53,657 bases of DNA from a virus (IMGVR_UViG_3300036715_001099:1-53657); one strand, 5' to 3'. Shown: positions 32,111 to 52,498, counted from the first letter of the stretch. The notes: generated by a model not told the origin, from the letters alone. Program-made: numbers and translations.

Positions 32111-32779
32111 TCACAAAAACTTCACGTAACCCTTTTTCATGTCCCATGCAAGATCCGCACTCGTACCGCCCCGGGCGTGGTACTCCGCGACCGTTGGGGC
32201 GCCCATGTAGCCGGCGAACCGGGCCGCCGAGGCGCCACGCTTCGGGTTCGCCTGTACGAGCCACTCCAAGCGCCGCACGTCGGCCAGAGCGTGCGCAGCC
32301 ACACCTGCGGCGACCTTGACCCCAGACAGCTTGGTAACGACGAGCTCGTTCGGCAGGCCCATCCGCCTGCAAGAAGAGTGCGCCCGGCGCTCGCCCGGCA
32401 CAAACCGCTTGAAGTAGAAGACATGATCGCACGCGGGGCATACACCCTTGAAGCCTGTGGTGGGCGGGGGAATGACCGCGTCGGCTTCGCTGAAGTACCG
32501 CTCGGGCTTGCACCCGAGCGACACGGCCCACCTCTGCCAGAGCGGCCCGTGGCCTGCGGCGTAGCCTGCGATCGCGTGGGCGATCTCGTGGAGGATGGTG
32601 TCTAGCACAGCGGGCCGCTCGTTGGCTTCGGTCAACTCCACTGACAGGCAGATCTCCATGGCCTCATACTTGCACATCCCGAAGGACTTGGAGCTACGCA
32701 CGAAGCTGAACACCCATCGGGCGTCCAGGTAGCGGGACATCTCATGGCGGGCCAGTTGCGCAGCTTCGATCAGGTTCAT
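32111..32779 (-). CDS. SprT-like zinc metalloprotease fused to ADLRWD domain (protein F)
   Basis: G.C......I.LS...DTILHEIAHA....GHG..W SprT motif, CxxC; C-terminal NPKRGASAARF..Y...GGTSADLAWDMKKG. Confidence 0.85.
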   Translation of the reverse strand: MNLIEAAQLARHEMSRYLDARWVFSFVRSSKSFGMCKYEAMEICLSVELTEANERPAVLDTILHEIAHAIAGYAAGHGPLWQRWAVSLGCKPERYFSEADAVIPPPTTGFKGVCPACDHVFYFKRFVPGERRAHSSCRRMGLPNELVVTKLSGVKVAAGVAAHALADVRRLEWLVQANPKRGASAARFAGYMGAPTVAEYHARGGTSADLAWDMKKGYVKFL

Positions 32780-32875
32780 GTGGTGTTCTCCTAGCGAGAA
32801 GGCAGGTGTAGCAGAGCTCGCGCCCCAACGCAAGCGGCCCGATGACGATTTCTCGCCAACGGGCCGCGGGTGGAT

Positions 32876-32995
32876 GGTCGGTTCTCAAGCGTACCACAGA
32901 TCGCTCGAGCGGTGTAAGAAATCTTCGAGCGTCGGCGGGGCGGTCAAGGTCGGTTCTCAAGCGTACCACAGATCGCTCGAGCGGTGTAAGAAATC
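32876..32995. repeat. two exact 48-bp direct repeats 24 bp apart (tandem promoter with palindromic core)
   Basis: GGTCGGTTCTCAAGCGTACCACAGATCGCTCGAGCGGTGTAAGAAATC at 32876-32923 and 32948-32995. Confidence 0.9.
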
Positions 32996-33210
32996 AGCGC
33001 AGCCGACGCTCTCGGTGCTTTGCGTCGGCTGCGCCGGACTTTGCGCCCCGTTTGACAGCCAAACCGCGCCAGGCGCAGCCGCTTGGCTTTACAGCGTAGA
33101 AAGCCCCTTGTGGCTACCCGCGCCCATGTGCTAGCCCGCCGTCGCTCTGGCGGGGCGCCTGGCGCTCCGATTTTGCTTGCCAAGCGCCCCGCAGCGTGCC
33201 AACGGCTCGG

Positions 33211-34632
33211 CTAGCGGTGTCGCGTGGCCAGGTCGCCCTTCAGAGCGTCCAGCAGCGCGGTTTGGCGCTTGCCCTTGGACTTGAGCGCGCCGAGCACGGC
33301 CTGGTCGATGGTATTCTTCGCGACGATGCGCGTGACCACCACCCGCTCCTTCTGACCCTGCCGCCAGATGCGCCGGTTGAACTGCTCGTAGAGCTCGAGG
33401 TCCCACGTCAGCCCGTACCAGATCACCGCGGCCCCGACCTCTTGCATGTTCAGGCCATGCGCCACGCTCGCCGGCTGTGCAAGCAAGATGGGAAGCTCGC
33501 CACGGTTCCACTTGAGCTCGATATCACGCTGCTGCGCCGTGGTGGTCCCGCCTCCCAGGTGCGGTACCGGCCCGTCGCAGTACGGCGCGAGCGCCACCTT
33601 CAGCCGCTCCATGTCATGCTGAAACTCGTACGCGATGAAGGCGGGCTTGCCGCTGAGCTCCTCGATCAGCGAGATGAGCGCTTCGGTCTTCGCATCGTGC
33701 AGGTGCTCCGACTTGCGCTTCTTCTTGCCGACAGTGACTTCGTCGTCGCCCATCAGGTAGAGCCCTCCGTTAGCAATCTGCCTGCACTTGCCAGCGGCGG
33801 ACGCGGTGTTCGGTGCGACGACTGCCTCGTCACGAATCTGCGTCACCAGGAGCTCCTCCATCTCGTCGTACACCTTGCGCGCCTTCTCGGGAAGCTCGAC
33901 GGTGATGGTGTTCTCAATCAGCGGCGGGAGCTCGAGGTAGTCGGCGCCCGACATGCGAAGTACGTACGGCCTGATCGCCTCGGTGATGGCCTCCTCGGCC
34001 CCCGCGCGCAGCGTCCACGTGAAGCCACCGAAGCCGGTCTGGTCGAAGTATTTCATCCGGTAGTGACTGATGAACTTTCCGAGCGACTTCCCGAGGTCCA
34101 CGATGTACATCTGTCCGAAGAGGTCCATCATCCCGTTGGGCGATGGCGTTCCAGTCAGGATGTAGCGACGCTTGAACTTCGGAAGTACCGGGCGCAGCGC
34201 CTTGAACCGCTTGGTCGTGGTGTGCTTGAAGCGCGTGCTCTCGTCGACGATGAGCATGTCCCACCAGAATCGCTTCTTCTTCGGCAGCTTCTTCATCGCC
34301 GCGAAGAGCCACTCCAGACCCTCCGGGTTGATGACGCTGATGTCGTGCGGCTCGAGGAGCAGAGCATCCTTCTTCGGACCGTGCAACACCGACACTCGCA
34401 GGTCGGCGAAGTTGTCCCATTTCTCGCGCTCGTTGGGCCACGCGCTGTGAGCCACGCGCAGCGGCGCGATCACAAGTACGCGCTCGACCAGCTTCTGCCG
34501 GCGAAGTAGGTTGGCGATGGAGTAGCTGATACTCGTCTTCCCCAACCCGGGATCGAGGAACAGCCCGCCGAAGGACTGCGCGACGCCGAACTTGATGGCC
34601 TTCTTCTGGTAGTCGTGTGGTGTGTACTTCAT
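33211..34632 (-). CDS. SNF2-family helicase
   Basis: HDYQ, LDPGLGKT, IVDES, LTGTP, HGLN.Q, Q...RIWRQGQ motifs. Confidence 0.93.
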   Translation of the reverse strand: MKYTPHDYQKKAIKFGVAQSFGGLFLDPGLGKTSISYSIANLLRRQKLVERVLVIAPLRVAHSAWPNEREKWDNFADLRVSVLHGPKKDALLLEPHDISVINPEGLEWLFAAMKKLPKKKRFWWDMLIVDESTRFKHTTTKRFKALRPVLPKFKRRYILTGTPSPNGMMDLFGQMYIVDLGKSLGKFISHYRMKYFDQTGFGGFTWTLRAGAEEAITEAIRPYVLRMSGADYLELPPLIENTITVELPEKARKVYDEMEELLVTQIRDEAVVAPNTASAAGKCRQIANGGLYLMGDDEVTVGKKKRKSEHLHDAKTEALISLIEELSGKPAFIAYEFQHDMERLKVALAPYCDGPVPHLGGGTTTAQQRDIELKWNRGELPILLAQPASVAHGLNMQEVGAAVIWYGLTWDLELYEQFNRRIWRQGQKERVVVTRIVAKNTIDQAVLGALKSKGKRQTALLDALKGDLATRHR

Positions 34633-34925
34633 GTGACCTCCGGGGCTTCGAGGAAGGTGTCGATGAGTGACTTGCCTGCGGCGATGTCGTCGATGACGAA
34701 GACGGGGAAGCCCTTCTCCATCATCTGCTGATGGAACGCCGCTTGCTGTGGTGTCGCCGCTCCGCCCGGCTTCTTGAACTCGATGAACAACGTGCGACCC
34801 GCGAAGAGGAACATGCGGTCAGGCCATCCGCGAGCACCGAGCCCATTCATCTTGCGAATGAGGCAGCCGCGCTTCTTCGCATGTGCCACCACTGACTCCT
34901 CGATGGTCTTCTCTAGTAGCGGCAC
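34629..34925 (-). CDS. VRR-NUC domain nuclease
   Basis: LEK.IE...GWPDR...FIEFK.PG....QQ; GTG start inferred. Confidence 0.88.
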   Translation of the reverse strand: MPLLEKTIEESVVAHAKKRGCLIRKMNGLGARGWPDRMFLFAGRTLFIEFKKPGGAATPQQAAFHQQMMEKGFPVFVIDDIAAGKSLIDTFLEAPEVT

Positions 34926-35614
34926 GGGCCACCCTTGCTCTTGCTGTACGGGCACCACCGACAGGACATACTCGGCTTCGCCATGAAGATCGTGTCGCTC
35001 AGCATCGGCTTGACCCGCTTCTCCCAATTCTTCATCAGCGCAGGGAGCATGTCGCGGGTGACCACGCCCTCCGGACGGCGTACCGGCTCCGGCCCGTGGT
35101 CGGTGAAAATCAGCTGGCCTGTGGCGCGCTCCAGCTGCGGCTGCTTCAATAGCGCGACCACGCCGTAGATGTTCAGCTGGTCGTCGTATTCACCGTCGGG
35201 CTTGTACTTCCCCGTCTTCCAGTCCGTGATCCATGCCTCGTTCTCGTCGACCTCGATCACGTCCATCTTCACGCGCAGCCATGCGTCCTTCGCGAACCAA
35301 TCCACTGGGCGCCATTTCACATCGAACGCGAGCTCTTGCTCCACGTAGACGTTCCCGCCCGGGTACTGCGCGCGGAGTTCGTCGAGCTTCGGCCGTACAG
35401 CGACGAGATCCTTGTGCAGCGCACGCGTTCCGCCGACGATGTACTGCTCGGCCGCGCTGTGGATCGCGATGCCGCGGGTCATCGCCGGCCCACCCGGGTC
35501 GGGCAGCTTGTCAATCTCCTTGTACTTCGTCTTCGCGGGGCACTGTTCGTAATTCCCCAGTCGGCTGATTGACCACGCCGTCAGGGTCTTGGCTTTGGTT
35601 GTCTTGAACGTCAT
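34913..35614 (-). CDS. PD-(D/E)XK (Cas4/RecB-like) exonuclease
   Basis: WS.SRL..Y.QCP, RG..IH, KMD, ITDWKTGK, QL..Y, CRWCPY...C. Confidence 0.88.
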   Translation of the reverse strand: MTFKTTKAKTLTAWSISRLGNYEQCPAKTKYKEIDKLPDPGGPAMTRGIAIHSAAEQYIVGGTRALHKDLVAVRPKLDELRAQYPGGNVYVEQELAFDVKWRPVDWFAKDAWLRVKMDVIEVDENEAWITDWKTGKYKPDGEYDDQLNIYGVVALLKQPQLERATGQLIFTDHGPEPVRRPEGVVTRDMLPALMKNWEKRVKPMLSDTIFMAKPSMSCRWCPYSKSKGGPCRY

Positions 35615-35615
35615 G

Positions 35616-37475
35616 TCAGGCCTCCTCATACTTCGTGAGCTCGCCCCAGTTGGGACCAGCCTTCCCGTCGCTGATCATAGGGACACTCATCTCAATCGAC
35701 GACATCACGTCGTTGAGGATGGTCATCTCCTTTCGCAGCGCCATCTTCGGTGCCGACGCGTTGATCTCGTCGTGTACCGTGACCATGAAGCGCGACTCCT
35801 TCTTGACCGCGTCGTAGCGGATGACCGCCTCCTTCGTGCAGTCTGCAGCGCTGCCCTGGACCAAGTAGTTCAGCAGCTTGTAGTCGAAGTGCAGCCACCT
35901 CCCCTGATGGAGTACGGGCGGCTCGCAGAAGTAGAGACGCCCGCCCCACGTCCGGAGCGGCTGATTGTTGCGCGCACGCTCCTTGATGTCGCGCTCCATC
36001 TGACGCAGGTCGGGGATCGCAGCCTTCTGCGCTGCGCGCAGCTTGCGCGCAGTCTCCACGTCCACGCCCGTTCCCGCGGCCAGCTTCCCGACGCCCATCC
36101 CGTAGAGCATCCCGAAGTTCAGGATCTTGACGGGGCGACGCTGCAACGACTGGCCCGTGACGCGCTCGATCTCGCCTTGGACGAAGATGTGGAAGTCCAT
36201 GCGTGGGTTCGTGCGATAGGCCGCACACATCTTACCGTCCTCGAAGTGAGCGAAGATTCGGAACTCTTGCTGATTGTAGTCGCGGTGCATGAAGACACCA
36301 CCCTTGTCGGGGATGATGTACTTGCGCACAAGCGGGAGCTCGGGAATGCCGAGGAAGGCGGGGTGGATGTACCCGTCGCCCTTGTCCATGAAATCCTTGC
36401 TGATGTTCATGAACCTCGAGCAGCTGAGGCGCCCGGTACGAGTGCCCTTGCTGGCGTTCGCGCCATGTCCCTCCTGCGCCTGACGCACTTGGTTCCACGA
36501 CGTGAAAATGGATCCGGTCGCTTGCGCCTGCGCGAGCCACGGCTCCATTGACATCTTGAGCACGGTGATCAGCCGGTTGCGGTAGCCCAACGCAGCCGCG
36601 ACCTGAGGGTCGAGGATCTTGTCGATGGTGAGGTTCTTCTTTGCCACCGACTTCTTCCCCGACTTCGGCGTCATCACCCAGTCAGTGACGAGTTCGTTGG
36701 CGTCCAGCGCAGCCGCGACCTCCGCGTCCGCGTCGAAGTTGATGGAGTCGTTGCCGAGCCGCTTGCGGAGCCAGTCCTCCGACGCCCCGAGTGACTTCTG
36801 GTAGACGGTCACGTCGCGGGCCAGGCGGTCCACGTCGACGAGCATCCCCTCGCGCTCGTTGCGATACAGGATGGGCATCAGCCGGAGCTCGCGCTCGTAC
36901 GCCGTACGCATCCCCTCGTCGAGCGTCGGGTAGATCAACTCGTAGAGCTTCCACGTACGGAGCACGTCGCCGTTCGCGTAGTCCCCGACCAGCTTGCCCG
37001 GTGCCTTACAGATGAAGGCGCCCGCGTCCTTCTGCTTGAGCGTCTTGATGAAGCCATGCGCGAGCAGCCATTGCTTGACCGCGTCCTGCTCTTCAGGCGG
37101 CATCCCAAGCAACGCGTCGGCGCTCGGCTTCAAGCTCAGCGACATTGCGTGTGGATTGTGCAGGAACAGCAGGAACATCGTGTCGTCGTACTCGTCGTGA
37201 TTCAACATGCGCAGGCCCCAATGCTCATGGGCCACCGACTGATCGAACTTCGCGTTGTGGAAGATGACCAGGTACTTCCCGCCCCACACCGCGGTCAGCG
37301 CGCGACGCGCTTGGCTCTCGGTGCAATTATTCTCGACGGGGTGCCCGAAGGCCCAGTACTTGGACTCACCGGAGTCCGGGAACATGATGCTCACGCCGAC
37401 GGGCTTGGGCGCAGCGTTCTTCGTGTCGTCGATGGCCTCGGTCTCAAAGTCCACGACAACAATTCTCTTCGACAT
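35616..37475 (-). CDS. polA: family A DNA polymerase with 3'-5' exonuclease
   Basis: DFETE, FHNAKFD, TGRLS, DYNQQEFRI, K.LNFG..YG.G, NYLVQGSAAD, VHDEI. Confidence 0.95.
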   Translation of the reverse strand: MSKRIVVVDFETEAIDDTKNAAPKPVGVSIMFPDSGESKYWAFGHPVENNCTESQARRALTAVWGGKYLVIFHNAKFDQSVAHEHWGLRMLNHDEYDDTMFLLFLHNPHAMSLSLKPSADALLGMPPEEQDAVKQWLLAHGFIKTLKQKDAGAFICKAPGKLVGDYANGDVLRTWKLYELIYPTLDEGMRTAYERELRLMPILYRNEREGMLVDVDRLARDVTVYQKSLGASEDWLRKRLGNDSINFDADAEVAAALDANELVTDWVMTPKSGKKSVAKKNLTIDKILDPQVAAALGYRNRLITVLKMSMEPWLAQAQATGSIFTSWNQVRQAQEGHGANASKGTRTGRLSCSRFMNISKDFMDKGDGYIHPAFLGIPELPLVRKYIIPDKGGVFMHRDYNQQEFRIFAHFEDGKMCAAYRTNPRMDFHIFVQGEIERVTGQSLQRRPVKILNFGMLYGMGVGKLAAGTGVDVETARKLRAAQKAAIPDLRQMERDIKERARNNQPLRTWGGRLYFCEPPVLHQGRWLHFDYKLLNYLVQGSAADCTKEAVIRYDAVKKESRFMVTVHDEINASAPKMALRKEMTILNDVMSSIEMSVPMISDGKAGPNWGELTKYEEA

Positions 37476-37565: not shown

Positions 37566-38477
37566 CTAGAACTTCCGCGGCGTGACCTTCTTCGCCGGCT
37601 TCGCCTCGTCGGACTCCGGATTGAACTTCCCGTAGGGGAAGGTGATCTCCTCCTTCACCGACTCCAGCCGCGCCAGGATGGGCACGATGAACTCCTGCCC
37701 CAGCGACTCCACGACCCGGAAGTTCATCTTGAACTGCGTCTTCGCGTCCGGGGTCAGACTGATCTCCGTGATGACGCCGAACGGCGGGCGCTTGAGCGTG
37801 GAGGCGACGCCCTTCACGTAGTGCGCCCACGGCTTGACAGAGGTGACCGAGACCTTCGCGTAGAAGATCTCGGCGTCGGGGACACCCTCCGGCGTCAGGC
37901 CGTTGGCGCTGATGATGGCCAGGCGCCGGATGTTCTTGCACGCCTTGCCCTTCCCGGTGTCCGCCGTGCCCCACTCATTCTGAGGGCACCCGCTGCACTC
38001 CGCCGCTTGCTTGTCGCCGGCGTCCTCGTGCGGTGCCATGCCGTCCTCGACGTGACCGAAGGCGTAGCAGTTCGGCGAGGCGGGGGCGTCGGCGTCGAAC
38101 TTGCCCTTGTAGAAGACGTTCTCGTAGACGTGGTCGAGGATGATGACGAGGATCTTGTTGCCCTCGACGGGCTGACCGCCCACGGACAGGATGCCGCCCC
38201 GGGTGCCGATGAACTGGCCCGAAGGGGTCTGCTCGCGGTCACTGGTCTCCTGCGCGTACTTCGCGAGCTCCTCCTCCCAATTCATCATGGCCGTGGACTG
38301 CGCAGGCGCGGCCTTGACGGGCAGGGTGGGCTTCGCAGCGGGCTTTGCGACGACGGGCTTGGCCGCTGGAGCGACGGGCGCAGCGGGTGCGGCCTGCGCC
38401 GGGGCCGCGGGCTTCGTGGCCTGTGCGGCGGGCGTGGTGGCTTTGACGACGGGCTTCTTGATGGGCAGAACTGCCAT
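37566..38477 (-). CDS. putative ssDNA-binding/annealing protein with Pro/Ala/Lys N-terminal tail
   Basis: Upstream of polA; P.CY, C..CP.N.WG...GKGKACKN.RRL motif seen in phage replication clusters. Confidence 0.6.
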   Translation of the reverse strand: MAVLPIKKPVVKATTPAAQATKPAAPAQAAPAAPVAPAAKPVVAKPAAKPTLPVKAAPAQSTAMMNWEEELAKYAQETSDREQTPSGQFIGTRGGILSVGGQPVEGNKILVIILDHVYENVFYKGKFDADAPASPNCYAFGHVEDGMAPHEDAGDKQAAECSGCPQNEWGTADTGKGKACKNIRRLAIISANGLTPEGVPDAEIFYAKVSVTSVKPWAHYVKGVASTLKRPPFGVITEISLTPDAKTQFKMNFRVVESLGQEFIVPILARLESVKEEITFPYGKFNPESDEAKPAKKVTPRKF

Positions 38478-38525
38478 GGTGAGACTCCGTTGTGTTGCGT
38501 TGAGAGGCTGCACTGCGAGGGTTGG

Positions 38526-39008: not shown

Positions 39009-39389
39009 CTACTTCTTGACCTCGGGGACCTTGCTGCCGACCTCGGCCTCAATCAGCAGCAAGTAGCGACGCAGGTCGCGGATGTCGTCCATGATGCCCT
39101 CGGCCCGCTTGTCGCCCTCCACAGCCCTGAAGATGTTGTAGTCGTACTTCCCGACGGCGAGTTCGAGTCGGTCCCATTTCCGCGCAGCCATCATGAAGGC
39201 GCCCACACCACCACGCTTCTTCCACGACGTGCCGTAGTTCATGTGAGATGCGGCCAGGCTGTTCGCATCTGCGAGCGCAGCGTCCAGCACCGCGTTCGCC
39301 GGAAACCCGTCAGCCTGTGCAGTGCGCAGAATGGGCGGCGTCCCACTCACCACGAAGTCCGTACCACCCGGCGTCTTCTCGTCAGACAT
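39009..39389 (-). CDS. nucleotide-modification-associated (Nmad1-like, all-alpha NTP pyrophosphohydrolase-related) protein
   Basis: NYG.SWKKRGGVGAFMM.ARKWDRLE...D.I.DLRRYLLLIEA; inside the modification cluster. Confidence 0.65.
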   Translation of the reverse strand: MSDEKTPGGTDFVVSGTPPILRTAQADGFPANAVLDAALADANSLAASHMNYGTSWKKRGGVGAFMMAARKWDRLELAVGKYDYNIFRAVEGDKRAEGIMDDIRDLRRYLLLIEAEVGSKVPEVKK

Positions 39390-39939
39390 CGTCGAAGCTC
39401 TCAGTCAGGGCCTGCGTGAAGTACGACACACCAGGGAGGCCCGTCTCGGTGGCGTAAGTGAGGGCGTTCTTGAACACGCTCTCCAAGTGCTTCGTGCGGT
39501 TGCCCATCTCGCGCTCGTGAAGACAGTTGAATGCCAGGTCCAGCGCGTCGCTCGCCTTCACCACCCTCTGCTCGAGCGGAGTGAGGTGCGTATAGATCAG
39601 GAACTTCTCGTCGAAGCGCGCCTCAAGCAGTGTGACCGCATTGCGCACAGACTCGCTGTACCGCTTGACCGGCGCAGGGATGTCGCCCGTCACGAGCTCG
39701 GCGGCATCGTGGTAGAGCAGCGCCAGCATCACGCTCAGCATATTCACAGCGGCCGAGCCCAGCGTCTCGCAGAAGTGGACGCCGAGGATCAGCGATCCGT
39801 AGACGTGCTGAGCATCCGTATGGTGGTTCAGCGTGGGAATGGCGTGCATTCGCTTGACCCGCCCGCTGCGGTAGAGGGTCTGGATTCGCTGGTACTGCGT
39901 AGGCTTGAACTCGGGGTCCAGCAGTCGAATCTCGCTCAT
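39382..39939 (-). CDS. HD-domain 5'-deoxynucleotidase (YfbR-like)
   Basis: V.R.H......AQH.Y, ALLYHDAAE..TGDIPAPVK, K.SD.LD. Confidence 0.85.
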   Translation of the reverse strand: MSEIRLLDPEFKPTQYQRIQTLYRSGRVKRMHAIPTLNHHTDAQHVYGSLILGVHFCETLGSAAVNMLSVMLALLYHDAAELVTGDIPAPVKRYSESVRNAVTLLEARFDEKFLIYTHLTPLEQRVVKASDALDLAFNCLHEREMGNRTKHLESVFKNALTYATETGLPGVSYFTQALTESFDDV

Positions 39940-39963
39940 GGTCGTGGTCCTCGGTGAGTGTGC

Positions 39964-41013
39964 TTACTTTGCTTCCGGGTGCGCCTTCAGCCACAGCTGG
40001 CCCGCCCGGCTCCAGTCGCTGGCGTGGCACTCCTCGAGGAATCCCTCGTCCCTGTGCAGCCACGCATTCCACATCGGGATTGCGACCTCCTGCCACCACG
40101 CCGTCTCGTAGTGATCGACGGTCTGGGACCTCGGGCCGTGCTCATCGAAGTCTTCGAAGAAGCTGGCCAGGTCGTCGTCCCATCCCGTGTCGCCGGCGCA
40201 CATCGGCGTCGCAGCCACGCCACCCTTCGCGTAGAGGTCATCGCTGACCGGGTCGCCGTGGTCGAGCTCTCCGCTGACGCGCGCCCACACCTTCGAAGAC
40301 CCGCCTTCGGTGTAGACGTGGAACGAGTCGCTGATCTGAATCATCTGGCCTACCTCCACGCCGAGCTTCCCGGCGATGTACTCCTGGAGCATGGAGAAGT
40401 GGACTGCGTTCGCGCCGTACGCACCCCAGACCATGTCGTTGGAGCGACAGCAGATGGTCATGCGCAGCGCCCCGTCGCGCAGCTTGAAGTAGAGGATGGA
40501 GTTGCACGGGATGTCCTTGCTGTCGATCCCGCCAACCTGCCTCACCACCCCATCGGGGTCCTGCGCGCCGAACGTCCGCAGGTCGTGCCGCGTGTCCCAC
40601 ATGGCGATCACGCCGCGACGCGTGTTCTTGTCACGCTTGATGACCTCCACCACGGCCTGAATCTGGTCGATGCCGAAGGCCGTGCGCCACCGCCATCCAT
40701 AGGCGCCTTGCATCAGCCATCCGTTGTCACTGAAACTCGCCATGTGCTTCACGATGGTCGCAGGGAACCGAACGTCGTTCCGGCCCGCCAGCATCCAGAG
40801 CGCTTCGAACAGGTGAAAGAACGGGTTGGCGTCGCGCACCGCGCTGAACAGGACGCGCTCAGTGGGCCTGTCGTAGGTGGTGATAACCGGGGCGGGCCAC
40901 TCCAAGACCTTCGTGCCGCGTGCCGCGATGGCGAACGACTGACGCGCGAAGATGTGAAGGAGCTCAGCCCCACGCTGAAACGCCCCGTTGACGTTGCGAA
41001 TGTTGATCTCCAT
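39964..41013 (-). CDS. thymidylate synthase homolog, probable dUMP hydroxymethylase
   Basis: NPFF...E.LW..AG, GAYG.R, TRR, KDIPCN, RSND..WG..GAN (Asn at the dUMP-specificity site), SFHVY. Confidence 0.85.
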   Translation of the reverse strand: MEINIRNVNGAFQRGAELLHIFARQSFAIAARGTKVLEWPAPVITTYDRPTERVLFSAVRDANPFFHLFEALWMLAGRNDVRFPATIVKHMASFSDNGWLMQGAYGWRWRTAFGIDQIQAVVEVIKRDKNTRRGVIAMWDTRHDLRTFGAQDPDGVVRQVGGIDSKDIPCNSILYFKLRDGALRMTICCRSNDMVWGAYGANAVHFSMLQEYIAGKLGVEVGQMIQISDSFHVYTEGGSSKVWARVSGELDHGDPVSDDLYAKGGVAATPMCAGDTGWDDDLASFFEDFDEHGPRSQTVDHYETAWWQEVAIPMWNAWLHRDEGFLEECHASDWSRAGQLWLKAHPEAK

Positions 41014-41017
41014 GGGT

Positions 41018-41869
41018 CTAGACCTTTCCCTTGACTGCCGTCTTCAGTGACTTCTGGCGCAGCGCCTCGGCCTCCGCAGCGGCCTTGACCCTCGCGTTGT
41101 GCCCGACCGCGTTGCGCCACGAGATGACAACGTCCTGCCGTGTGGCGCCCTCCATGCCTTCCCAGGCGGGCTTCTCCACGACCTTGACGTACTCGCTGTG
41201 GAGCTCCTTCAAGCGCAGCGCGCTGGCGTTGTGGCGCTCGAGCGTCCGCCAGGTGGAACAGCCTCCGGTCGCGTTGCTCGTGCCCATCGTGCAGCGCCAC
41301 TCCAGGCTGACCCGGTTATTGAATCCGGCCTTCATCAGTTGGAGCGTCATGTGAAAGTCCTCCATGCACCACCACGACTCAGGCCCGAGAATGAAGCTCG
41401 CCTTGTTGGCGAACACGACCGGGACGTTGTAGGCGAGGCAGTACATCATCCGCCCGGACATGTGGCTCTGCGTAACCGGGGCTGCGTAGGCCAGCTGTCG
41501 CACGCCCCATCCGCAGTGAGGCACCTCGTCCAGCGTGGTCTCGATCCACTGGAGCGCCTCCATCACCTCTGCCGGCGAGCAGTCGGTGATCTTTCCGTCG
41601 TCTCGCCGGCGCTGAACGTGCCGCATGTCGTCATCCATCATGACGACCTTGTCCCAACCATTCTTCTTCGCGGTGTCGAGGACAAACTGCCTCACAGCGG
41701 AGATACCCATCTTGTCGCAGACCAGCACCGAGCGACCGAGCGCCAGGTGCGCAGGAGCCTCCTCCTTCGTGCAGACGATGGATGTGACGGCGCGCGCAGC
41801 GGGCGGAAGCGCGTTCCAGGTGTGTTGCTTGTTGACACGGTTCAGCGTGGGAATGAAGATACGCAGCAT
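41018..41869 (-). CDS. GT-A fold glycosyltransferase (TET/JBP-associated, GREB1-like DNA glycosyltransferase family)
   Basis: IFIPT..R, GI..VRQ, MMDDD (DxD), EDF...LQL...G, GGCS..RT. Confidence 0.75.
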   Translation of the reverse strand: MLRIFIPTLNRVNKQHTWNALPPAARAVTSIVCTKEEAPAHLALGRSVLVCDKMGISAVRQFVLDTAKKNGWDKVVMMDDDMRHVQRRRDDGKITDCSPAEVMEALQWIETTLDEVPHCGWGVRQLAYAAPVTQSHMSGRMMYCLAYNVPVVFANKASFILGPESWWCMEDFHMTLQLMKAGFNNRVSLEWRCTMGTSNATGGCSTWRTLERHNASALRLKELHSEYVKVVEKPAWEGMEGATRQDVVISWRNAVGHNARVKAAAEAEALRQKSLKTAVKGKV

Positions 41870-41878
41870 GGTCGCTCC

Positions 41879-42754
41879 TTACTTCTTGGGCTTCGGGTGA
41901 TGATACGTGGAACGTGGACGGCCTTGACCGAGCCTGACTCGCTCGTACTTGTCGAACTCACAAAGGCAGAACTGAACGTCGTGGGCGGAGAGCGGCTTGA
42001 TACCCGTGCCAATGAGTTCAGCATTCACAGCACCCTGCACAGCCATCAACTCGGCGACCCAGAAGGCCTCCTTGCCGCCTCCGTAGTGCAGGTCCCGCTC
42101 CTGTAGGCGGTTGATACCGCGCCGAGCGCCCGGCCCTACAGGACTCCAGGTCAGCGCGTCGTCCGCGTCCTTGCCGAAGCGCGTCAGGAGCACGTCCTGT
42201 AGAACCTCCTTGCTCATGAATCCGCTCCCGCCGAAGCCAGGTACAGTCTTCAGCACGTCGTACGCCGCTTCCCAGCTGCGCCGCATCTTTAGCGCGGACA
42301 TCACCATCGGGGCGCGCTTCCACATGCTGCCGATGAAGTCACAGACCACAACTTCTTTCGGCTCAGTCCGGCCACAGTTCGTGATGACGTAGGCACCTGT
42401 GAAGACCCGAGCCCCCGCGCCGAGCCGAGCCCGCGCAGTCTGGATGACGCTCTTCGCGACGTCGTCGTTCCAGTCATTGAGCCAGCCCAGATGCTCCATG
42501 AATTCGAAGGTGCCAAAGTACCTGGCGATCGTGCAGTTGAGCAGCGTCACTTCGGGCTTCGTCTTCGCGTTGATGTTCTTGTCGTAGATCGCCTTGAACC
42601 GCTTCGTGGCCGCGTCGTCCTCTCGGTGAACGTTCGTGAACTTGTACTTGTGGAGAATGGGGTCCTTGGTCCACGGGGACGGGAGCCCGGCTGCGCGCTT
42701 GACGCGTATGGACTCGCGCTCCCGGATGTAGCCTGCGAAGGCTTCGGTGTTCAC
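41879..42754 (-). CDS. 5-hydroxymethyluracil DNA kinase (aGPT-Pplase1 family)
   Basis: ERE.IR.......PWT.DPIL..YKFTNV.REDD, FTGAY, GPGA.RG..R, Q..LCEFDKY.R. Confidence 0.85.
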   Translation of the reverse strand: MNTEAFAGYIRERESIRVKRAAGLPSPWTKDPILHKYKFTNVHREDDAATKRFKAIYDKNINAKTKPEVTLLNCTIARYFGTFEFMEHLGWLNDWNDDVAKSVIQTARARLGAGARVFTGAYVITNCGRTEPKEVVVCDFIGSMWKRAPMVMSALKMRRSWEAAYDVLKTVPGFGGSGFMSKEVLQDVLLTRFGKDADDALTWSPVGPGARRGINRLQERDLHYGGGKEAFWVAELMAVQGAVNAELIGTGIKPLSAHDVQFCLCEFDKYERVRLGQGRPRSTYHHPKPKK

Positions 42755-43620
42755 AGGAGCTCCATGGCGTCAACGGTGAAGTGTCCATCGACACAGGTCG
42801 GGCAGCGCGTGCGCAGCGGCGGAAGCTCTTCGTAGACGGTGCCGGGGAGTTGCACACCGTAGATCAGCGGTCGGATGTCTGCGGCCGACACTGGCCATGT
42901 CACGAGCCCAGTGCAGCGCCAGCACATGCCGCGCGCCGTAAAGCAGGCCCCTAGCTGCCCCGCTGGAGGGCTAACGGTGCCGGGCCCGGCCTGTGGGGTG
43001 GGTGCCGTTGGCGCCCTTGCCTGCGGCTGTGCTGCGAAGTCGCGCTTACGCACAGGCTCCTCAAGTAGCTTGGGAATCTTGTACGCGAACATCTCGTCGA
43101 GCGCCGCGTTGCGCGCGGTGAAGTAGCTCGGGACATCCGACTCGAGCCGCACCATCTCAACCCCGGCGATCTTCGCAAGCCACCCGACCACCTTGGACTC
43201 CCGTGGCTCACGGCTCGGGTACGTGTCGAGCTCGTACACGACGCGCTTGATTCCACTTGCCAGCACCACGTTCTTCATGCAAGGCGCGCACGGGATATGA
43301 GTGCAGACCAGCGACGCGGTACTCAGGTCAACACCTGCGCGCAGCGCCTTGCGAACAGCATTCACCTCAGCGTGAATGACGAGCTCATACTTCGTGAGCT
43401 TGTTCTCGGTTGTCTCGCGCTGATTCCAGGTCTCCTCAGCGTCCGGCACGCCGACAGGGAACCCGTTGTACCCGATGAACAACCCGCCGCTGACCGGGTC
43501 GTAGATGCAAGCGCCGACCTTCGTGCTCGGGTCCTTGCTGCGCGACTCCGCCCACAGCTTGCACACCGCGAGAATCGCTTCTTCAGTGCTCAGCTTCGAC
43601 TTCAGGATGTTCGGTTGCAT
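42751..43620 (-). CDS. dCMP deaminase with C-terminal CxxC...CxxC extension
   Basis: RSKDPSTKVGA, GYNGFP.G, HAE.NA, PC..C. Confidence 0.9.
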   Translation of the reverse strand: MQPNILKSKLSTEEAILAVCKLWAESRSKDPSTKVGACIYDPVSGGLFIGYNGFPVGVPDAEETWNQRETTENKLTKYELVIHAEVNAVRKALRAGVDLSTASLVCTHIPCAPCMKNVVLASGIKRVVYELDTYPSREPRESKVVGWLAKIAGVEMVRLESDVPSYFTARNAALDEMFAYKIPKLLEEPVRKRDFAAQPQARAPTAPTPQAGPGTVSPPAGQLGACFTARGMCWRCTGLVTWPVSAADIRPLIYGVQLPGTVYEELPPLRTRCPTCVDGHFTVDAMELL

Positions 43621-48898: not shown

Positions 48899-49167
48899 GG
48901 CGTCTCCTGTGCAACCTTCTTGTGTCGTTTGCGGCCGATCTCGTTGACGTGCTTCGGACAGTACCGCTTCGCGTCGGTGCCGTCCGCGGTAGCCCGGAAG
49001 TAACACTGATGCTCAGCAACAAGATCATCAGCAGCGACCGTGAATTCACACCGCACCTCCGGCCCCTTCTTGGGCTCCTGAAACACCTTCGTGAACGACA
49101 TTCCGAGCGGGTTGCTCGCTGCTCTAGGTACTTTCGGGTACATACTGCGCACGCCTCGGTTCGCCAT
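48895..49167 (-). CDS. hypothetical protein
   Basis: AAGGAG RBS; C/H residues. Confidence 0.55.
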   Translation of the reverse strand: MANRGVRSMYPKVPRAASNPLGMSFTKVFQEPKKGPEVRCEFTVAADDLVAEHQCYFRATADGTDAKRYCPKHVNEIGRKRHKKVAQETP

Positions 49168-49970
49168 CAGGCAAGCTCCTTACACTGTTCGAATAACTTT
49201 TCACGCCAACGCATAGCGAACGTTCTGCAGTTCTGACAAGCCGAGTGCGTACACCCTGGAAGCGGCCCCTCCCTGCGCCCCGCTAGACTCCACGCCAATG
49301 AGTCGGCGCTGTGCAGCAGTCCGGTCACCTTGGCGAGCCCTTGGGTCTTCACGCCGAACCCGTGCAACTTCAACCCGTGCGCGTGTAGTCGCTTCACGAT
49401 CCCTGCTATCTCGTCGGTCGCCTGGCGCCTGCACACAGATCCCAGTCCTACTATTGGCTCCTTTCGTAGGTCCACTCCAGCGCGCAGATACATCTGGATA
49501 TGAGCGAAGTAGTCGTCATTCTCCCAACCTTGCAACACCGGAGTCCACTGAATCTCAGGGGCCATACGGCGCAGGTCCATGAGTGACTGAACAGTTAGCT
49601 TCTGATGCTCCGTCGTAGTCTTCCCGGTCTTCGCTCGAATCACTGGCTCGCACATCCAGTCCTGGATTGCAGCCCAGTCCATTCCACCTATCTGCTTCGC
49701 CCATCTACGAACCTCTTCAACGTAAGCGGCTGCGCTCACCGCACCCCAGTCGCCATTCATGGAAAGCTCGGAAAATCCCCCCGAGTCAAGCGACCACCGA
49801 GTAACACTCTTCGGCCACCATTTCTGTTGAGTAAGCCTGCGCCGTGAGACGAAGAGCGGAACGTTCACCTTGGTCAGCCAGTCTGGAAGATGGGTGCCAA
49901 GGTAGAACAACGTCTTGACCGCGGGCGCGCTCGGACGTGGTTGCCTCGGGTAGCGCAGCGGCAGGCTCAT
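49167..49970 (-). CDS. TGT-fold (queuine tRNA-ribosyltransferase/DpdA-like) base-exchange enzyme
   Basis: LDSGGFS, QDWMCEP, PVLQG, VGLGSVCRRQ, LHGFGVK, SADSLAWS. Confidence 0.75.
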   Translation of the reverse strand: MSLPLRYPRQPRPSAPAVKTLFYLGTHLPDWLTKVNVPLFVSRRRLTQQKWWPKSVTRWSLDSGGFSELSMNGDWGAVSAAAYVEEVRRWAKQIGGMDWAAIQDWMCEPVIRAKTGKTTTEHQKLTVQSLMDLRRMAPEIQWTPVLQGWENDDYFAHIQMYLRAGVDLRKEPIVGLGSVCRRQATDEIAGIVKRLHAHGLKLHGFGVKTQGLAKVTGLLHSADSLAWSLAGRREGPLPGCTHSACQNCRTFAMRWREKLFEQCKELA

Positions 49971-50197
49971 GCGGCCCAACCTAATCCAACGCCGCATGAC
50001 CAGCAAATTCGATAGGAGCCCTCAGCACCACGCGCTTCGTCGTACCGAATGCGGTGACCCTCTTCGCTGCACTCCTTCAGAATTCGCTTGCGCTCCTCCA
50101 TCAGAATTCTCAGCTTGTTGTCGATGGCGCTGAGTCCGCTCTTTCTGGAGAACTCCGAAGGTGTGGGGTGTGGGGCGTGCGTCGACCACGCCCCCAT
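49967..50197 (-). CDS. hypothetical protein
   Basis: Ends in an ATGA overlap with the TGT-like gene; start uncertain. Confidence 0.45.
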   Translation of the reverse strand: MGAWSTHAPHPTPSEFSRKSGLSAIDNKLRILMEERKRILKECSEEGHRIRYDEARGAEGSYRICWSCGVGLGWAA

Positions 50198-51362: not shown

Positions 51363-51607
51363 TTCACGTAGAGATGCAAGCTGATGTCGGGCCCGGCGGA
51401 GCGCTGCACATACGGAGACAGCGGATCCACCTTGCTCAGTACCGGGCGCCGGATGTCCAACTCCATGTCCTCGATCTCTCCGTGCTCCGGGCTCAGGTTG
51501 TGCGTGGTGCCGTCGTCCATCGTCATGATTACAATCATGGACCTGACCTTGCTCGGCTTCAGGTTGTCCGTGGTCAGCTTGATATCCACTTCGTCCTTCG
51601 TGCTCAT
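51347..51607 (-). CDS. hypothetical protein
   Basis: ATGA overlap, AAGG RBS. Confidence 0.6.
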   Translation of the reverse strand: MSTKDEVDIKLTTDNLKPSKVRSMIVIMTMDDGTTHNLSPEHGEIEDMELDIRRPVLSKVDPLSPYVQRSAGPDISLHLYVKWKVK

Positions 51608-52044
51608 GGATTCACCTTCTTAGCCCGCGGGTCAGCGGGCGGGTTCGGGTAGATCAGCGGTAGAGCAGGGTCAACGGTCCAATCGTATTGCTTGTAGAAC
51701 TCGGGTTCCTTGCGTAGCAGGAGCGCCTTGTGCATGTCGTGAAACTCGTCGCCTCCGAACCACGGAGGCATCGCCGTAGTGCCATCCTTGCGCTGATCGG
51801 GGACTTCCATGTTGTTCACGTAGCCCCGGCGCTTCCACTCCCAGATGACCTCGCGCATGTAGATGCACAGAGCGTTGTCGTAGTGAGTCCACATCTTCGT
51901 TGCCGGGTGGTTCACCCATCCCGCCGTGACCCCGCGCAGGCCGTTGATGATCTGCAGGCACTCCAGGCGCTGCTTACCGAGCCGACGCATATCCAGGCAG
52001 CTTGCGCTCTGCACGAAACTCGGGTAGGGGAGAAAGGTCTGCAT
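51604..52044 (-). CDS. pyrimidine-dimer DNA glycosylase/endonuclease V-like protein (MSMEG_6728-type)
   Basis: MQTFLPY..F..SA..LD..RLGKQR.E..QI, W.NHPA..MW, PPW.G...H..H...L..K. Confidence 0.85.
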   Translation of the reverse strand: MQTFLPYPSFVQSASCLDMRRLGKQRLECLQIINGLRGVTAGWVNHPATKMWTHYDNALCIYMREVIWEWKRRGYVNNMEVPDQRKDGTTAMPPWFGGDEFHDMHKALLLRKEPEFYKQYDWTVDPALPLIYPNPPADPRAKKVNP

Positions 52045-52048
52045 CGCG

Positions 52049-52498
52049 CTACTCCTTCTCTGGCTTGGCTGCAAGAGGAATCTTCTTGACGACAGGTCTG
52101 GGGCCGATCGTGGTCTGCGGCTTCGGAACAGGGAAGTCGGTGTGACCCCGTGCAGCTGCGATCTGGCTTACATCACTCGGACGCCCGCGCAGTTTGCCAA
52201 CCGCGGGATCGTCCAGTCGCTCGCGAACCTCCTGCGCAGTGGCCGTCTCCAGCGAAATGCTGATGAGGGCGCGCAGCACATTCCCGCTCGAACTGAACAT
52301 CTTCACGACGCGCTCAGTGGCGCGAACCTTGTTGGCGAGCGGAGATATCTGCGCGAAAATGCCCGACGGGAGCACGCGGTTGAGCGCCGCTTGCGCCTGA
52401 TCAAGCTCCTTGAGAGCGCCTGCGTAGCACTCTGCACGCAGCTTTTCAATGTGAGCAAGCTGTTGGATATCCACGGAAACCTGTAAGATACTCCCCAT
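52049..52498 (-). CDS. hypothetical protein, first gene of the leftward operon
   Basis: GAGGTG RBS. Confidence 0.6.
   Translation of the reverse strand: MGSILQVSVDIQQLAHIEKLRAECYAGALKELDQAQAALNRVLPSGIFAQISPLANKVRATERVVKMFSSSGNVLRALISISLETATAQEVRERLDDPAVGKLRGRPSDVSQIAAARGHTDFPVPKPQTTIGPRPVVKKIPLAAKPEKE

Follow-up and report, generated by a model that had tools for sequence, protein, structure and literature searches.

The window analysed here is the whole 53,657 bp record of an IMG/VR virus (IMGVR_UViG_3300036715_001099:1-53657), which is 100% complete by CheckV and has a G+C content of about 63%. Six minus-strand genes at positions 39009-43620 abut or overlap one another and form a tight operon upstream of the gene for the family A DNA polymerase, PolA (Table 1). 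The operon encodes a dCMP deaminase, a clade-1 aGPT-Pplase of Pfam family PF18723, a GT-A DNA glycosyltransferase of the TAGT family, a homolog of thymidylate synthase (TS), a YfbR-like HD-domain nucleotidase and a small helical protein. The stop codon of the deaminase gene overlaps the start of the PF18723 gene (GTGA). This gene content suggests a hypermodification of thymidine in the phage DNA, and we consider here what its product may be.

Table 1. Genes of the operon and two context genes, with positions in the window and the profile matches or identities on which the assignments are based.
Product	Length (aa)	Position	Strand	Evidence
dCMP deaminase	289	42751..43620	-	PF00383, 57.7 bits, 1.2e-15; phrog_174, 1.8e-32; ATG, top coordinate 43620
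Clade-1 aGPT-Pplase, PF18723 (HMUDK_hel)	291	41879..42754	-	PF18723, E 4.3e-35, 121.9 bits
TAGT-family GT-A DNA glycosyltransferase	283	41018..41869	-	PF20691, E 1.4e-16, 61.5 bits; phrog_842, 5.5e-37
TS-family enzyme, uracil-specific, predicted dUMP hydroxymethylase	349	39964..41013	-	PF00303, 1.4e-14; phrog_5131, 7.1e-95
YfbR-like HD-domain 5'-deoxynucleotidase		39382..39939	-	PF12917, 3.1e-19, 69.8 bits
Small conserved helical protein, Pam3 gp54-like	126	39009..39389	-	45% identical to Pam3 gp54
Family A DNA polymerase (context)		35616..37475	-	PF00476, 1.1e-40
PD-(D/E)XK nuclease (context)		34913..35629	-	PF12705, 1.3e-19

The TS homolog matches PF00303 with 54.3 bits (cut-off 24.3) and has the catalytic Cys170 in IPCNS and Asn202 in GANAVHF. 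In the alignment, Asn202 lies opposite the Asn of thymidylate synthase and the Asp of the CMP hydroxymethylase MilA, and both Cys170 and Asn202 are kept in 78/78 TS homologues compared. MilA is the best sequence match in the PDB (2.8e-15), and true thymidylate synthases match at 1.6e-07 or weaker. The protein falls in phrog_5131 together with the M6/PaMx11-type enzymes, and it is 39-43% identical to PaMx11 gp51 (39%), Pam3 gp52 and PhiJL001 gp24. The hypermodification of PaMx11 has been reconstituted from DNA containing 5-hydroxymethyldeoxyuridine (5hmdU) (Lee et al. 2021, PMC8989533). We predict from these matches that the window enzyme is a uracil-specific dUMP hydroxymethylase.

The TAGT protein scores well above the gathering score of PF20691 (61.5 against 27.5 bits). 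D79-D80-D81 is invariant in both alignments made (7/7 and 27/27 sequences), and in the larger one R60 and D171 are invariant and F172 is nearly so. This matches the R...DDD...EDY/F motif of GT-A DNA glycosyltransferases described by Pyle et al. (bioRxiv 2023.12.21.572611), where TAGT relatives with a JGT-like fold are DNA glycosyltransferases acting on 5-hydroxymethylpyrimidine (5-hydroxymethylcytosine (5hmC) in DNA). By analogy, the window TAGT is predicted to transfer a sugar to 5-hydroxymethyluracil (5hmU) in DNA. No Tet_JBP gene was found in the window and only one of 50 records was positive; this record (L043) has a TAGT relative at similar identity and Tet_JBP, without TS and PF18723. 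Five further TAGT fragments gave no Tet_JBP match either, but as the controls of that search also stayed negative, it carries no weight. The genomic partner of the window TAGT is the TS homolog and not a TET/JBP dioxygenase.

The motifs HAE and PCxxC are readable in the translation of the dCMP deaminase. About 150 aa (window 42751-43200) extend this protein at its C-terminus, and they include two CxxC pairs and match no Pfam family. The HD protein (69.8 bits against a cut-off of 25.9) has homologues in Pam3 gp53, PaMx11 gp52 and PhiJL001 gp25, and we infer from its family that it controls the dNMP pool by removal of dTMP. A first-pass annotation of this stretch had placed contiguous genes here, just upstream of PolA, and had named among them the deaminase, a GT-A glycosyltransferase with a DDD motif, a TS homolog with Asn at the specificity position and an HD nucleotidase; the profile matches and alignments bear out all of these.

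The PF18723 protein and the search for a kinase

PF18723, formerly aGPT-Pplase1, is currently named HMUDK_hel (5-hmdU DNA kinase, helical domain) in Pfam and has a gathering score of 25. The match of the window protein is near full-length (profile positions 5-276 of 281), and Pam3 gp50, annotated as aGPT-Pplase1, matches the same model. The window protein is 31% identical to M6 ORF055 (gp55) over residues 6-284, 30% identical to PaMx11 gp50 over residues 2-291 and about 30% identical to PhiJL001 gp19 over its full length. Its AF2 model, built with an alignment of 25 sequences, has 12 helices and no strands (pLDDT 93). Among 48,161 PDB chains, a VIA search gave 8z2m_A, PaMx11 gp46, as the top structural match (Z 10.5, rmsd 4.3, 219 residues aligned; model 4-284 against chain 8-265), followed by helix-hairpin-helix (HhH) DNA glycosylases and DUF2419 at Z 6-9.6. 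With Foldseek, all matches were weak ones to HhH glycosylases and DUF2419 (E>=0.1), and PaMx11 gp46 surfaced only in the wide VIA search. PaMx11 gp46 is a 5-phosphomethyldeoxyuridine (5-PmdU) glycinyltransferase, and in the motif of such amino-acid:DNA transferases (AADTs, also ADDTs) C6 is attacked by the Cys (C247 in gp46), and the metal is bound by the Glu at position -4 (E243) (PMC11472151; PMC13458397).

In the PF18723 family C265-E266 is invariant (25/25 relatives). It lies in the motif (E/D)V(E/Q)xxLCEFDKYxR, and the family also has a GPGxxRG hairpin. AADTs carry EVETxLCKW, which resembles the PF18723 motif, including its (E/Q)xxxC; the position four residues before C265 is Gln (Q261) in the window protein and Glu in many relatives. 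The VIA-aligned ranges put C265 opposite C247, a tentative equivalence at the level of a weak alignment and of matching ranges. Because of the fold match to gp46, the similar motif and the position of C265 opposite C247, we read the modelled PF18723 protein as an HhH-fold, clade-1 paralogue of the Cys-dependent amino-acid:DNA transferases that appears to keep the nucleophile Cys, and not as a kinase. It probably acts on 5hmU or a 5hmU derivative in DNA.

PF18723 has at least 1968 relatives in the protein collection, and the best 120 of near-equal length are all stand-alone proteins with the PF18723 domain only. A word-limited search of longer proteins gave three matches, with PF18723 alone, with AAA_25 and with DNA_pol_A; neither there nor among the best 120 was PF18723 found fused to a kinase or a TAGT, which is weak evidence that such fusions are lacking. 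The two fusions (P0008 and P0009; PF18723 with AAA_25, 1026 aa, and with a family A DNA polymerase, 913 aa) hint that the clade-1 enzyme may work at the replication fork. A complex prediction for the PF18723 protein and the TAGT, with alignments for both, scored 0.17 and 0.00 (mark 0.32) and was used neither way.

The 5hmdU DNA kinases M6 gp54, PaMx11 gp49, ViI gp67 and ViI gp243 are P-loop proteins, and the amino-acid:DNA transferases M6 gp51 and ViI gp247 are clade-2 aGPT-Pplases (Lee et al. 2021, PMC8989533). In the same paper, a reaction without M6 gp55 still yielded the 315 u M6 product. ViI has a second glycosylase-fold protein, gp160, a paralogue of gp247, and only gp247 is termed necessary. 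The three Pfam models separate on Pam3, where gp50 matches PF18723, gp49 the kinase model PF18748 (2.3e-07) and gp47 the ADDT model PF18724. In six frames of the window, neither PF18748 (P-loop kinase) nor PF18724 (ADDT/aGPT-Pplase2) gave a match at E<=10. The same two hidden Markov models (HMMs) were run on 49 TAGT-bearing records (47 from IMG/VR plus PhiJL001 and LuckyBarnes), 12 of which are at least 90% complete. PF18748 was found in 0/49 and an ADDT above cut-off in 0/49, with Pam3 controls at 1.4e-7 and 6e-20, respectively. The 291-aa PF18723 protein contains no Walker A motif ([AG]xxxxGK[ST]). In the set of 75 candidate window genes, Walker-A-like motifs are confined to a 492-aa open reading frame (ORF) at the terminase position without a Pfam family, the SNF2 helicase and a primase-helicase; no small Walker-A protein is present. 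The Pfam scan, which took in 59 window ORFs, found no pyridoxal phosphate (PLP), radical S-adenosylmethionine (radical-SAM) or methyltransferase family.

By these searches, the cluster is a transferase paralogue plus a glycosyltransferase, without a kinase. The first-pass annotation had described it as a 5hmdU DNA kinase paired with a glycosyltransferase, without an amino-acid:DNA transferase and without PLP or radical-SAM genes. Of this description, the glycosyltransferase, the lack of a clade-2 ADDT and the lack of PLP and radical-SAM families stand. The kinase does not, as the protein concerned is an all-helical homologue of M6 gp55 and PaMx11 gp50 without Walker A, PF18748 is missing, and a transferase-like Cys paralogue is present after all.

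Related loci and genome context

A single TAGT protein as query recovered no related loci, and an alignment of seven sequences was needed. It led to 152 tblastn-confirmed TAGT relatives in IMG/VR; gene presence was then scored by tblastn (E<=1e-4) in the best 80 loci. All 80 have the TAGT, and the TS homolog is present in 74, PF18723 in 73, PolA in 69, the small protein in 50, the HD gene in 21 and the deaminase in 2. HMM search adds PF18723 in two further records, of which one is truncated at a contig end, and this brings it to 75/80. The trio of PF18723, TAGT and TS occurs in 71/80 loci, and the kinase, AADT and Nmad5 of Pam3 in none (0/80). The order PF18723, TAGT, TS, small protein on one strand is found in 40/80 loci, with permutations elsewhere; PF18723 followed by TAGT is the commonest gene order (40+10+8 of 80). 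The arrangement is far beyond chance, as dozens of viral contigs that are not related to one another have this order. One relative, the complete circular 40 kb genome MW202897 (L087), has the TAGT, a TS homolog with the Asn and the HD gene, and PF18723 is found nowhere in its genome. Therefore the TAGT need not depend on PF18723.

The other conserved neighbours in these loci serve replication and repair (a PD-(D/E)XK nuclease, UvrD helicase, AEP primase, DenV-like glycosylase, DUF932 and DUF3310), with no kinase among them. Of the 71 trio-bearing loci, 59 have a member of the PD-(D/E)XK nuclease family, as does the window; in most related loci it lies within the module, and its median position falls between the TS and small-protein genes. 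A DenV-like glycosylase gene lies directly upstream of the PF18723 gene in 33/71 related loci (L082:6310-6804 and 32 others); the window encodes a DenV-like pyrimidine-dimer DNA glycosylase at 51604-52074 on the minus strand (Pyr_excise, 2.6e-23).

The 126-aa protein has 26 invariant alignment columns, and its AF2 model has a pLDDT of 86.6. It has no Pfam match at E<=5, and its family profile has no match among PDB sequences. The model gives weak fold matches to RS21-C6/MazG-type pyrophosphatases (best VIA Z 7.2; Foldseek E>=3), and we make no fold claim because Z 7.2 is within the range of common helical arrangements. The name Nmad1-like given to it in the first-pass annotation could not be confirmed, since DUF1599 (PF07659) is found neither in six frames of the window nor in any of 20 family members; the remaining lead is a DUF1599-rich Atlas cluster at TM 0.57, below the Atlas's own bar. 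The protein is possibly MazG/Nmad1-like. Two small helical proteins that are unrelated to each other alternate in the place between HD and PolA, either the Pam3 gp54-like one (window and 49 related loci) or a family whose representative matches DUF3310 (19 loci). The small protein of MW202897 has an N-terminal DKQVGG.HY stretch in common with M6 gp61 and PaMx11 gp53, and we take these three, which are alike by eye, to be DUF3310-like.

In the rest of the window, the plus strand carries structural genes as far as about 23 kb, which encode, among others, an HK97-type capsid protein and a portal protein that has a Mu-F domain; the minus strand carries genes for replication and nucleotide metabolism. 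At the DNA level, Pseudanabaena phage Pam3 is the closest named phage and the M6/YuA/PaMx11-like Pseudomonas phages come next, with all matches within the TS homolog. Two genes (133 aa and 315 aa) separate the 126-aa gene from PolA. The SSB gene proposed earlier at 37566-38513 could not be confirmed, as it has no Pfam family and matches PHROGs of unknown function only. Downstream of PolA, the minus strand of window 32111-35629 encodes an SprT-like protein, the SNF2 helicase, a weak VRR-NUC match and the PD-(D/E)XK nuclease. A DpdA-family protein is encoded at 49167-50006 on the minus strand (PF23859, E 2.7e-82) and hints at a further modification of the phage DNA, with 7-deazaguanine inserted at G. 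None of the Pfam-scanned ORFs of the window matched a preQ0-synthesis family, and DpdA was found in 0/80 related loci.

Predicted product and its alternatives

We favour, with moderate confidence, the view that the cluster is a kinase-less module for thymidine replacement and glycosylation whose most likely product is a base-J-like O-glycosyl-5hmU. In this pathway, the dCMP deaminase would make dUMP, the uracil-specific TS-family enzyme would hydroxymethylate it to 5hmdUMP, and host kinases would convert 5hmdUMP to 5hmdUTP. The nucleotide pool would be biased against dTTP by the HD nucleotidase, perhaps together with the small helical protein, and the phage PolA would incorporate 5hmdUTP to give 5hmU-DNA. 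Finally, with a nucleoside diphosphate (NDP)-sugar as donor, the TAGT would glycosylate the 5hmU of this DNA at its 5-hydroxymethyl group. The route to 5hmU-DNA in the kinase-bearing phages is similar, with DctD, a dUMP hydroxymethylase, host kinases and the phage polymerase (PMC13458397); for the window, the steps up to 5hmU-DNA are predicted from family assignments. Since the cluster lacks a kinase, we consider phosphate-containing products, sugar-phosphate adducts among them, unlikely.

Several points weigh against this interpretation. The sugar and the acceptor of the TAGT are predicted from its relatives, and sequence does not separate hydroxymethylase from methylase activity of the TS homolog. 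For the PF18723 protein, Z 10.5 is modest for a helical protein, and the sequence tie to the ADDTs is weak; the family profile has no match among PDB sequences, and hhalign of the family with Pam3 gp47 gives a probability of 1% over 26 columns. The near-obligate pairing of TAGT with PF18723 (75/80) is unexplained by a simple one-step glycosylation, and the invariant Cys suggests that PF18723 may have a chemistry that could alter the final product. A full-text literature search found no nucleoside analysis of a phage with this module.

The first-pass annotation had offered either a sugar-phospho-5hmU or a base J-like glycosyl-5hmU. The latter is still the best reading, and the former loses its basis because PF18723 is not a kinase and the P-loop kinase is missing. 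For a sugar-phosphate to be made, PF18723 would have to be the 5hmdU DNA kinase, with the glycosyltransferase acting on or beside the phosphate, and both its Pfam name and its position next to the P-loop kinase gene in M6, PaMx11 and Pam3 could be taken that way. However, the all-helical model without strands or Walker A is unlike the proven kinases, which are P-loop proteins, PF18748 is missing from the window and from 49/49 related records, the M6 product formed without gp55 (PMC8989533), and the best 120 listed relatives carry PF18723 and no other domain (120/120). A kinase function for PF18723 is therefore scarcely credible. Ordinary thymidylate synthase activity of the TS homolog, with the glycosyltransferase modifying a target other than DNA and T left unmodified, is also very unlikely. 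Hydroxymethylase activity is not provable from sequence, and most of the GT-A hits mined by Pyle et al. do not adjoin base-modification genes (bioRxiv 2023.12.21.572611). Nevertheless, the protein scores far better against phrog_5131 (7e-95) and MilA (2.8e-15) than against true thymidylate synthases (1.6e-07 or weaker). Its gene is flanked by PF18723, and thymidine-modification gene sets are found in all the cultured phages examined that carry PF18723 (M6, PaMx11, Pam3, PhiJL001 and LuckyBarnes). The gene is also fixed in an operon with PolA, dCMP deaminase and the HD nucleotidase.

The remaining alternatives give PF18723 a part in the chemistry. Glycosylation could replace phosphorylation as the activating step, so that Cys265 attacks C6, the sugar is expelled to leave an exocyclic methylene, another nucleophile is added and the final base is no glycoside. 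The TAGT does occupy the place of the kinase cassette, PF18723 keeps the (E/Q)xxxC motif and is paired with the TAGT in 75/80 loci, and the exocyclic-methylene mechanism is established for clade-2 enzymes (PMC8989533; PMC11472151). On chemical reasoning, however, phosphate leaves far more readily than a sugar alkoxide; MW202897 has TAGT and TS without PF18723, PF18723 is also found with kinases and is thus not tied to sugars, and the tandem TAGTs of LuckyBarnes fit the building of a glycan and not a leaving group. We consider this route improbable. PF18723 might instead couple a nucleophile to C5 of 5hmU without phosphate, by reversible dehydration via a Cys adduct, and the TAGT might glycosylate the appended group. 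This would suit the invariant Cys, the prevalence of the order PF18723 then TAGT and the lack of a kinase, but the known clade-2 enzymes require a phosphorylated substrate (PMC8989533), TAGT relatives act directly on hydroxymethylpyrimidines (bioRxiv 2023.12.21.572611), and PF18723 is missing from MW202897. It too is an unlikely explanation. More generally, it is doubtful, although worth keeping in mind, that this orphan clade-1 aGPT-Pplase transfers groups to DNA bases by means of its Cys and without need of a phosphate, and that together with the glycosyltransferase it makes a new chemical class of thymidine hypermodification, with the sugar as a leaving group or with a nucleophile on the C5 methylene that is then glycosylated. 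If true, there would be a second, kinase-independent route of thymidine hypermodification, common in marine viromes.

Because the module is common (152 TAGT relatives; at least 1968 PF18723 relatives), an uncharacterised base with effects on restriction, CRISPR and sequencing may be present in the DNA of a whole class of phages. To our knowledge, no function has been assigned to the clade-1 aGPT-Pplases since 2013. The window offers a handle on them, as the gene stands here without a kinase and a clade-2 enzyme, beside a single candidate partner, and is also found in two cultured phages with DNA open to direct analysis. The family name is a trap in this respect, since a match to HMUDK_hel does not imply a kinase. 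The association of a DNA glycosyltransferase with a TS homolog is already in print, because Pyle et al., who mined about 20,000 GT-A contigs, reported that these enzymes have 5mYOX and ThyS neighbours in roughly equal shares and that dCMP deaminase accompanies ThyS (bioRxiv 2023.12.21.572611; later Cell Reports 2024). The text consulted characterises no product and does not mention PF18723. According to a 2026 PNAS paper on T-dioxygenases, 5hmU formed by oxidation can be expected to carry sugars. The full-text search found no measured glycosyl-5hmU or sugar-5hmU adduct in a phage making 5hmU via a TS homolog, and no statement on the pairing of PF18723 with TAGT, with supplements and Iyer et al. 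2013 outside its scope.

Comparison with known systems

M6, PaMx11 and Pam3, the phages with a 5hmdU DNA kinase (5-HMUDK) and an AADT (Lee et al. 2018, 2021), have the same core as the window in a similar order, namely the clade-1 aGPT-Pplase, TS-family enzyme, HD protein, small helical protein, PolA and dCMP deaminase. The window differs from them in having no P-loop kinase, no clade-2 AADT and none of the PLP, radical-SAM, flavin adenine dinucleotide (FAD) and acetyltransferase tailoring genes. It has the TAGT between the Pplase1 and TS genes, whereas those phages carry the kinase, AADT and tailoring enzymes upstream. Because the core is common to both types and the TAGT stands in place of the kinase/AADT cassette, PF18723 looks like a part of a core 5hmU platform (PF18723...TS-HD-small protein-PolA), on which the decorating enzymes would be exchangeable.

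Glycosylated 5hmU (base J) is known from kinetoplastids. The predicted product resembles it in having a sugar O-linked to 5hmU in DNA, and the GT-A enzyme is reported to be structurally JGT-like (Pyle et al.). In base J synthesis by JBP1/2 and JGT, specific thymines are oxidised in DNA, whereas the 5hmU of the window is predicted to come from a hydroxymethylase acting on the nucleotide and would probably replace T throughout the genome. The window also belongs to a phage and not to a eukaryote, and it has the additional Cys enzyme PF18723. The phage TET/5mYOX pathways in which GT-A (TAGT) enzymes glycosylate 5hmC (Burke 2021; Pyle et al.) have in common with the window the PF20691 family, the R...DDD...EDF motifs and a 5-hydroxymethylpyrimidine acceptor. 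They differ in that the hydroxymethyl base of the window would be made before replication by the TS homolog, on uracil (Asn202) and not on cytosine, and there is no Tet_JBP in the window.

The closest cultured counterparts are PhiJL001, a phage of Alphaproteobacteria, and the Brevibacterium phage LuckyBarnes. A literature search found no DNA analyses of either. Both have the same trio of PF18723, TAGT and TS with the Asn (gp19, gp22 and gp24 in PhiJL001; gp38, gp39/40 and gp41 in LuckyBarnes), at 27-41% amino-acid identity to the window, and the PhiJL001 cluster (gp19-gp30) also includes PolA, dCMP deaminase and HD. Unlike the window, PhiJL001 has the Nmad5 protein gp23 (L083, 8836-9435) between the glycosyltransferase and TS genes. 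This protein is 26% identical to Pam3 gp51, which is Nmad5 (E 1.8e-19), and therefore Nmad5 also occurs in a TAGT-type cluster. LuckyBarnes (L084, 5436-9451) differs from the window in having a 517-aa TS homolog and two tandem TAGTs followed by PF18723, and the two glycosyltransferases suggest that its modification may be a disaccharide. The feature is real and widespread, and it is a variant of the known thymidine and cytosine hypermodification systems.

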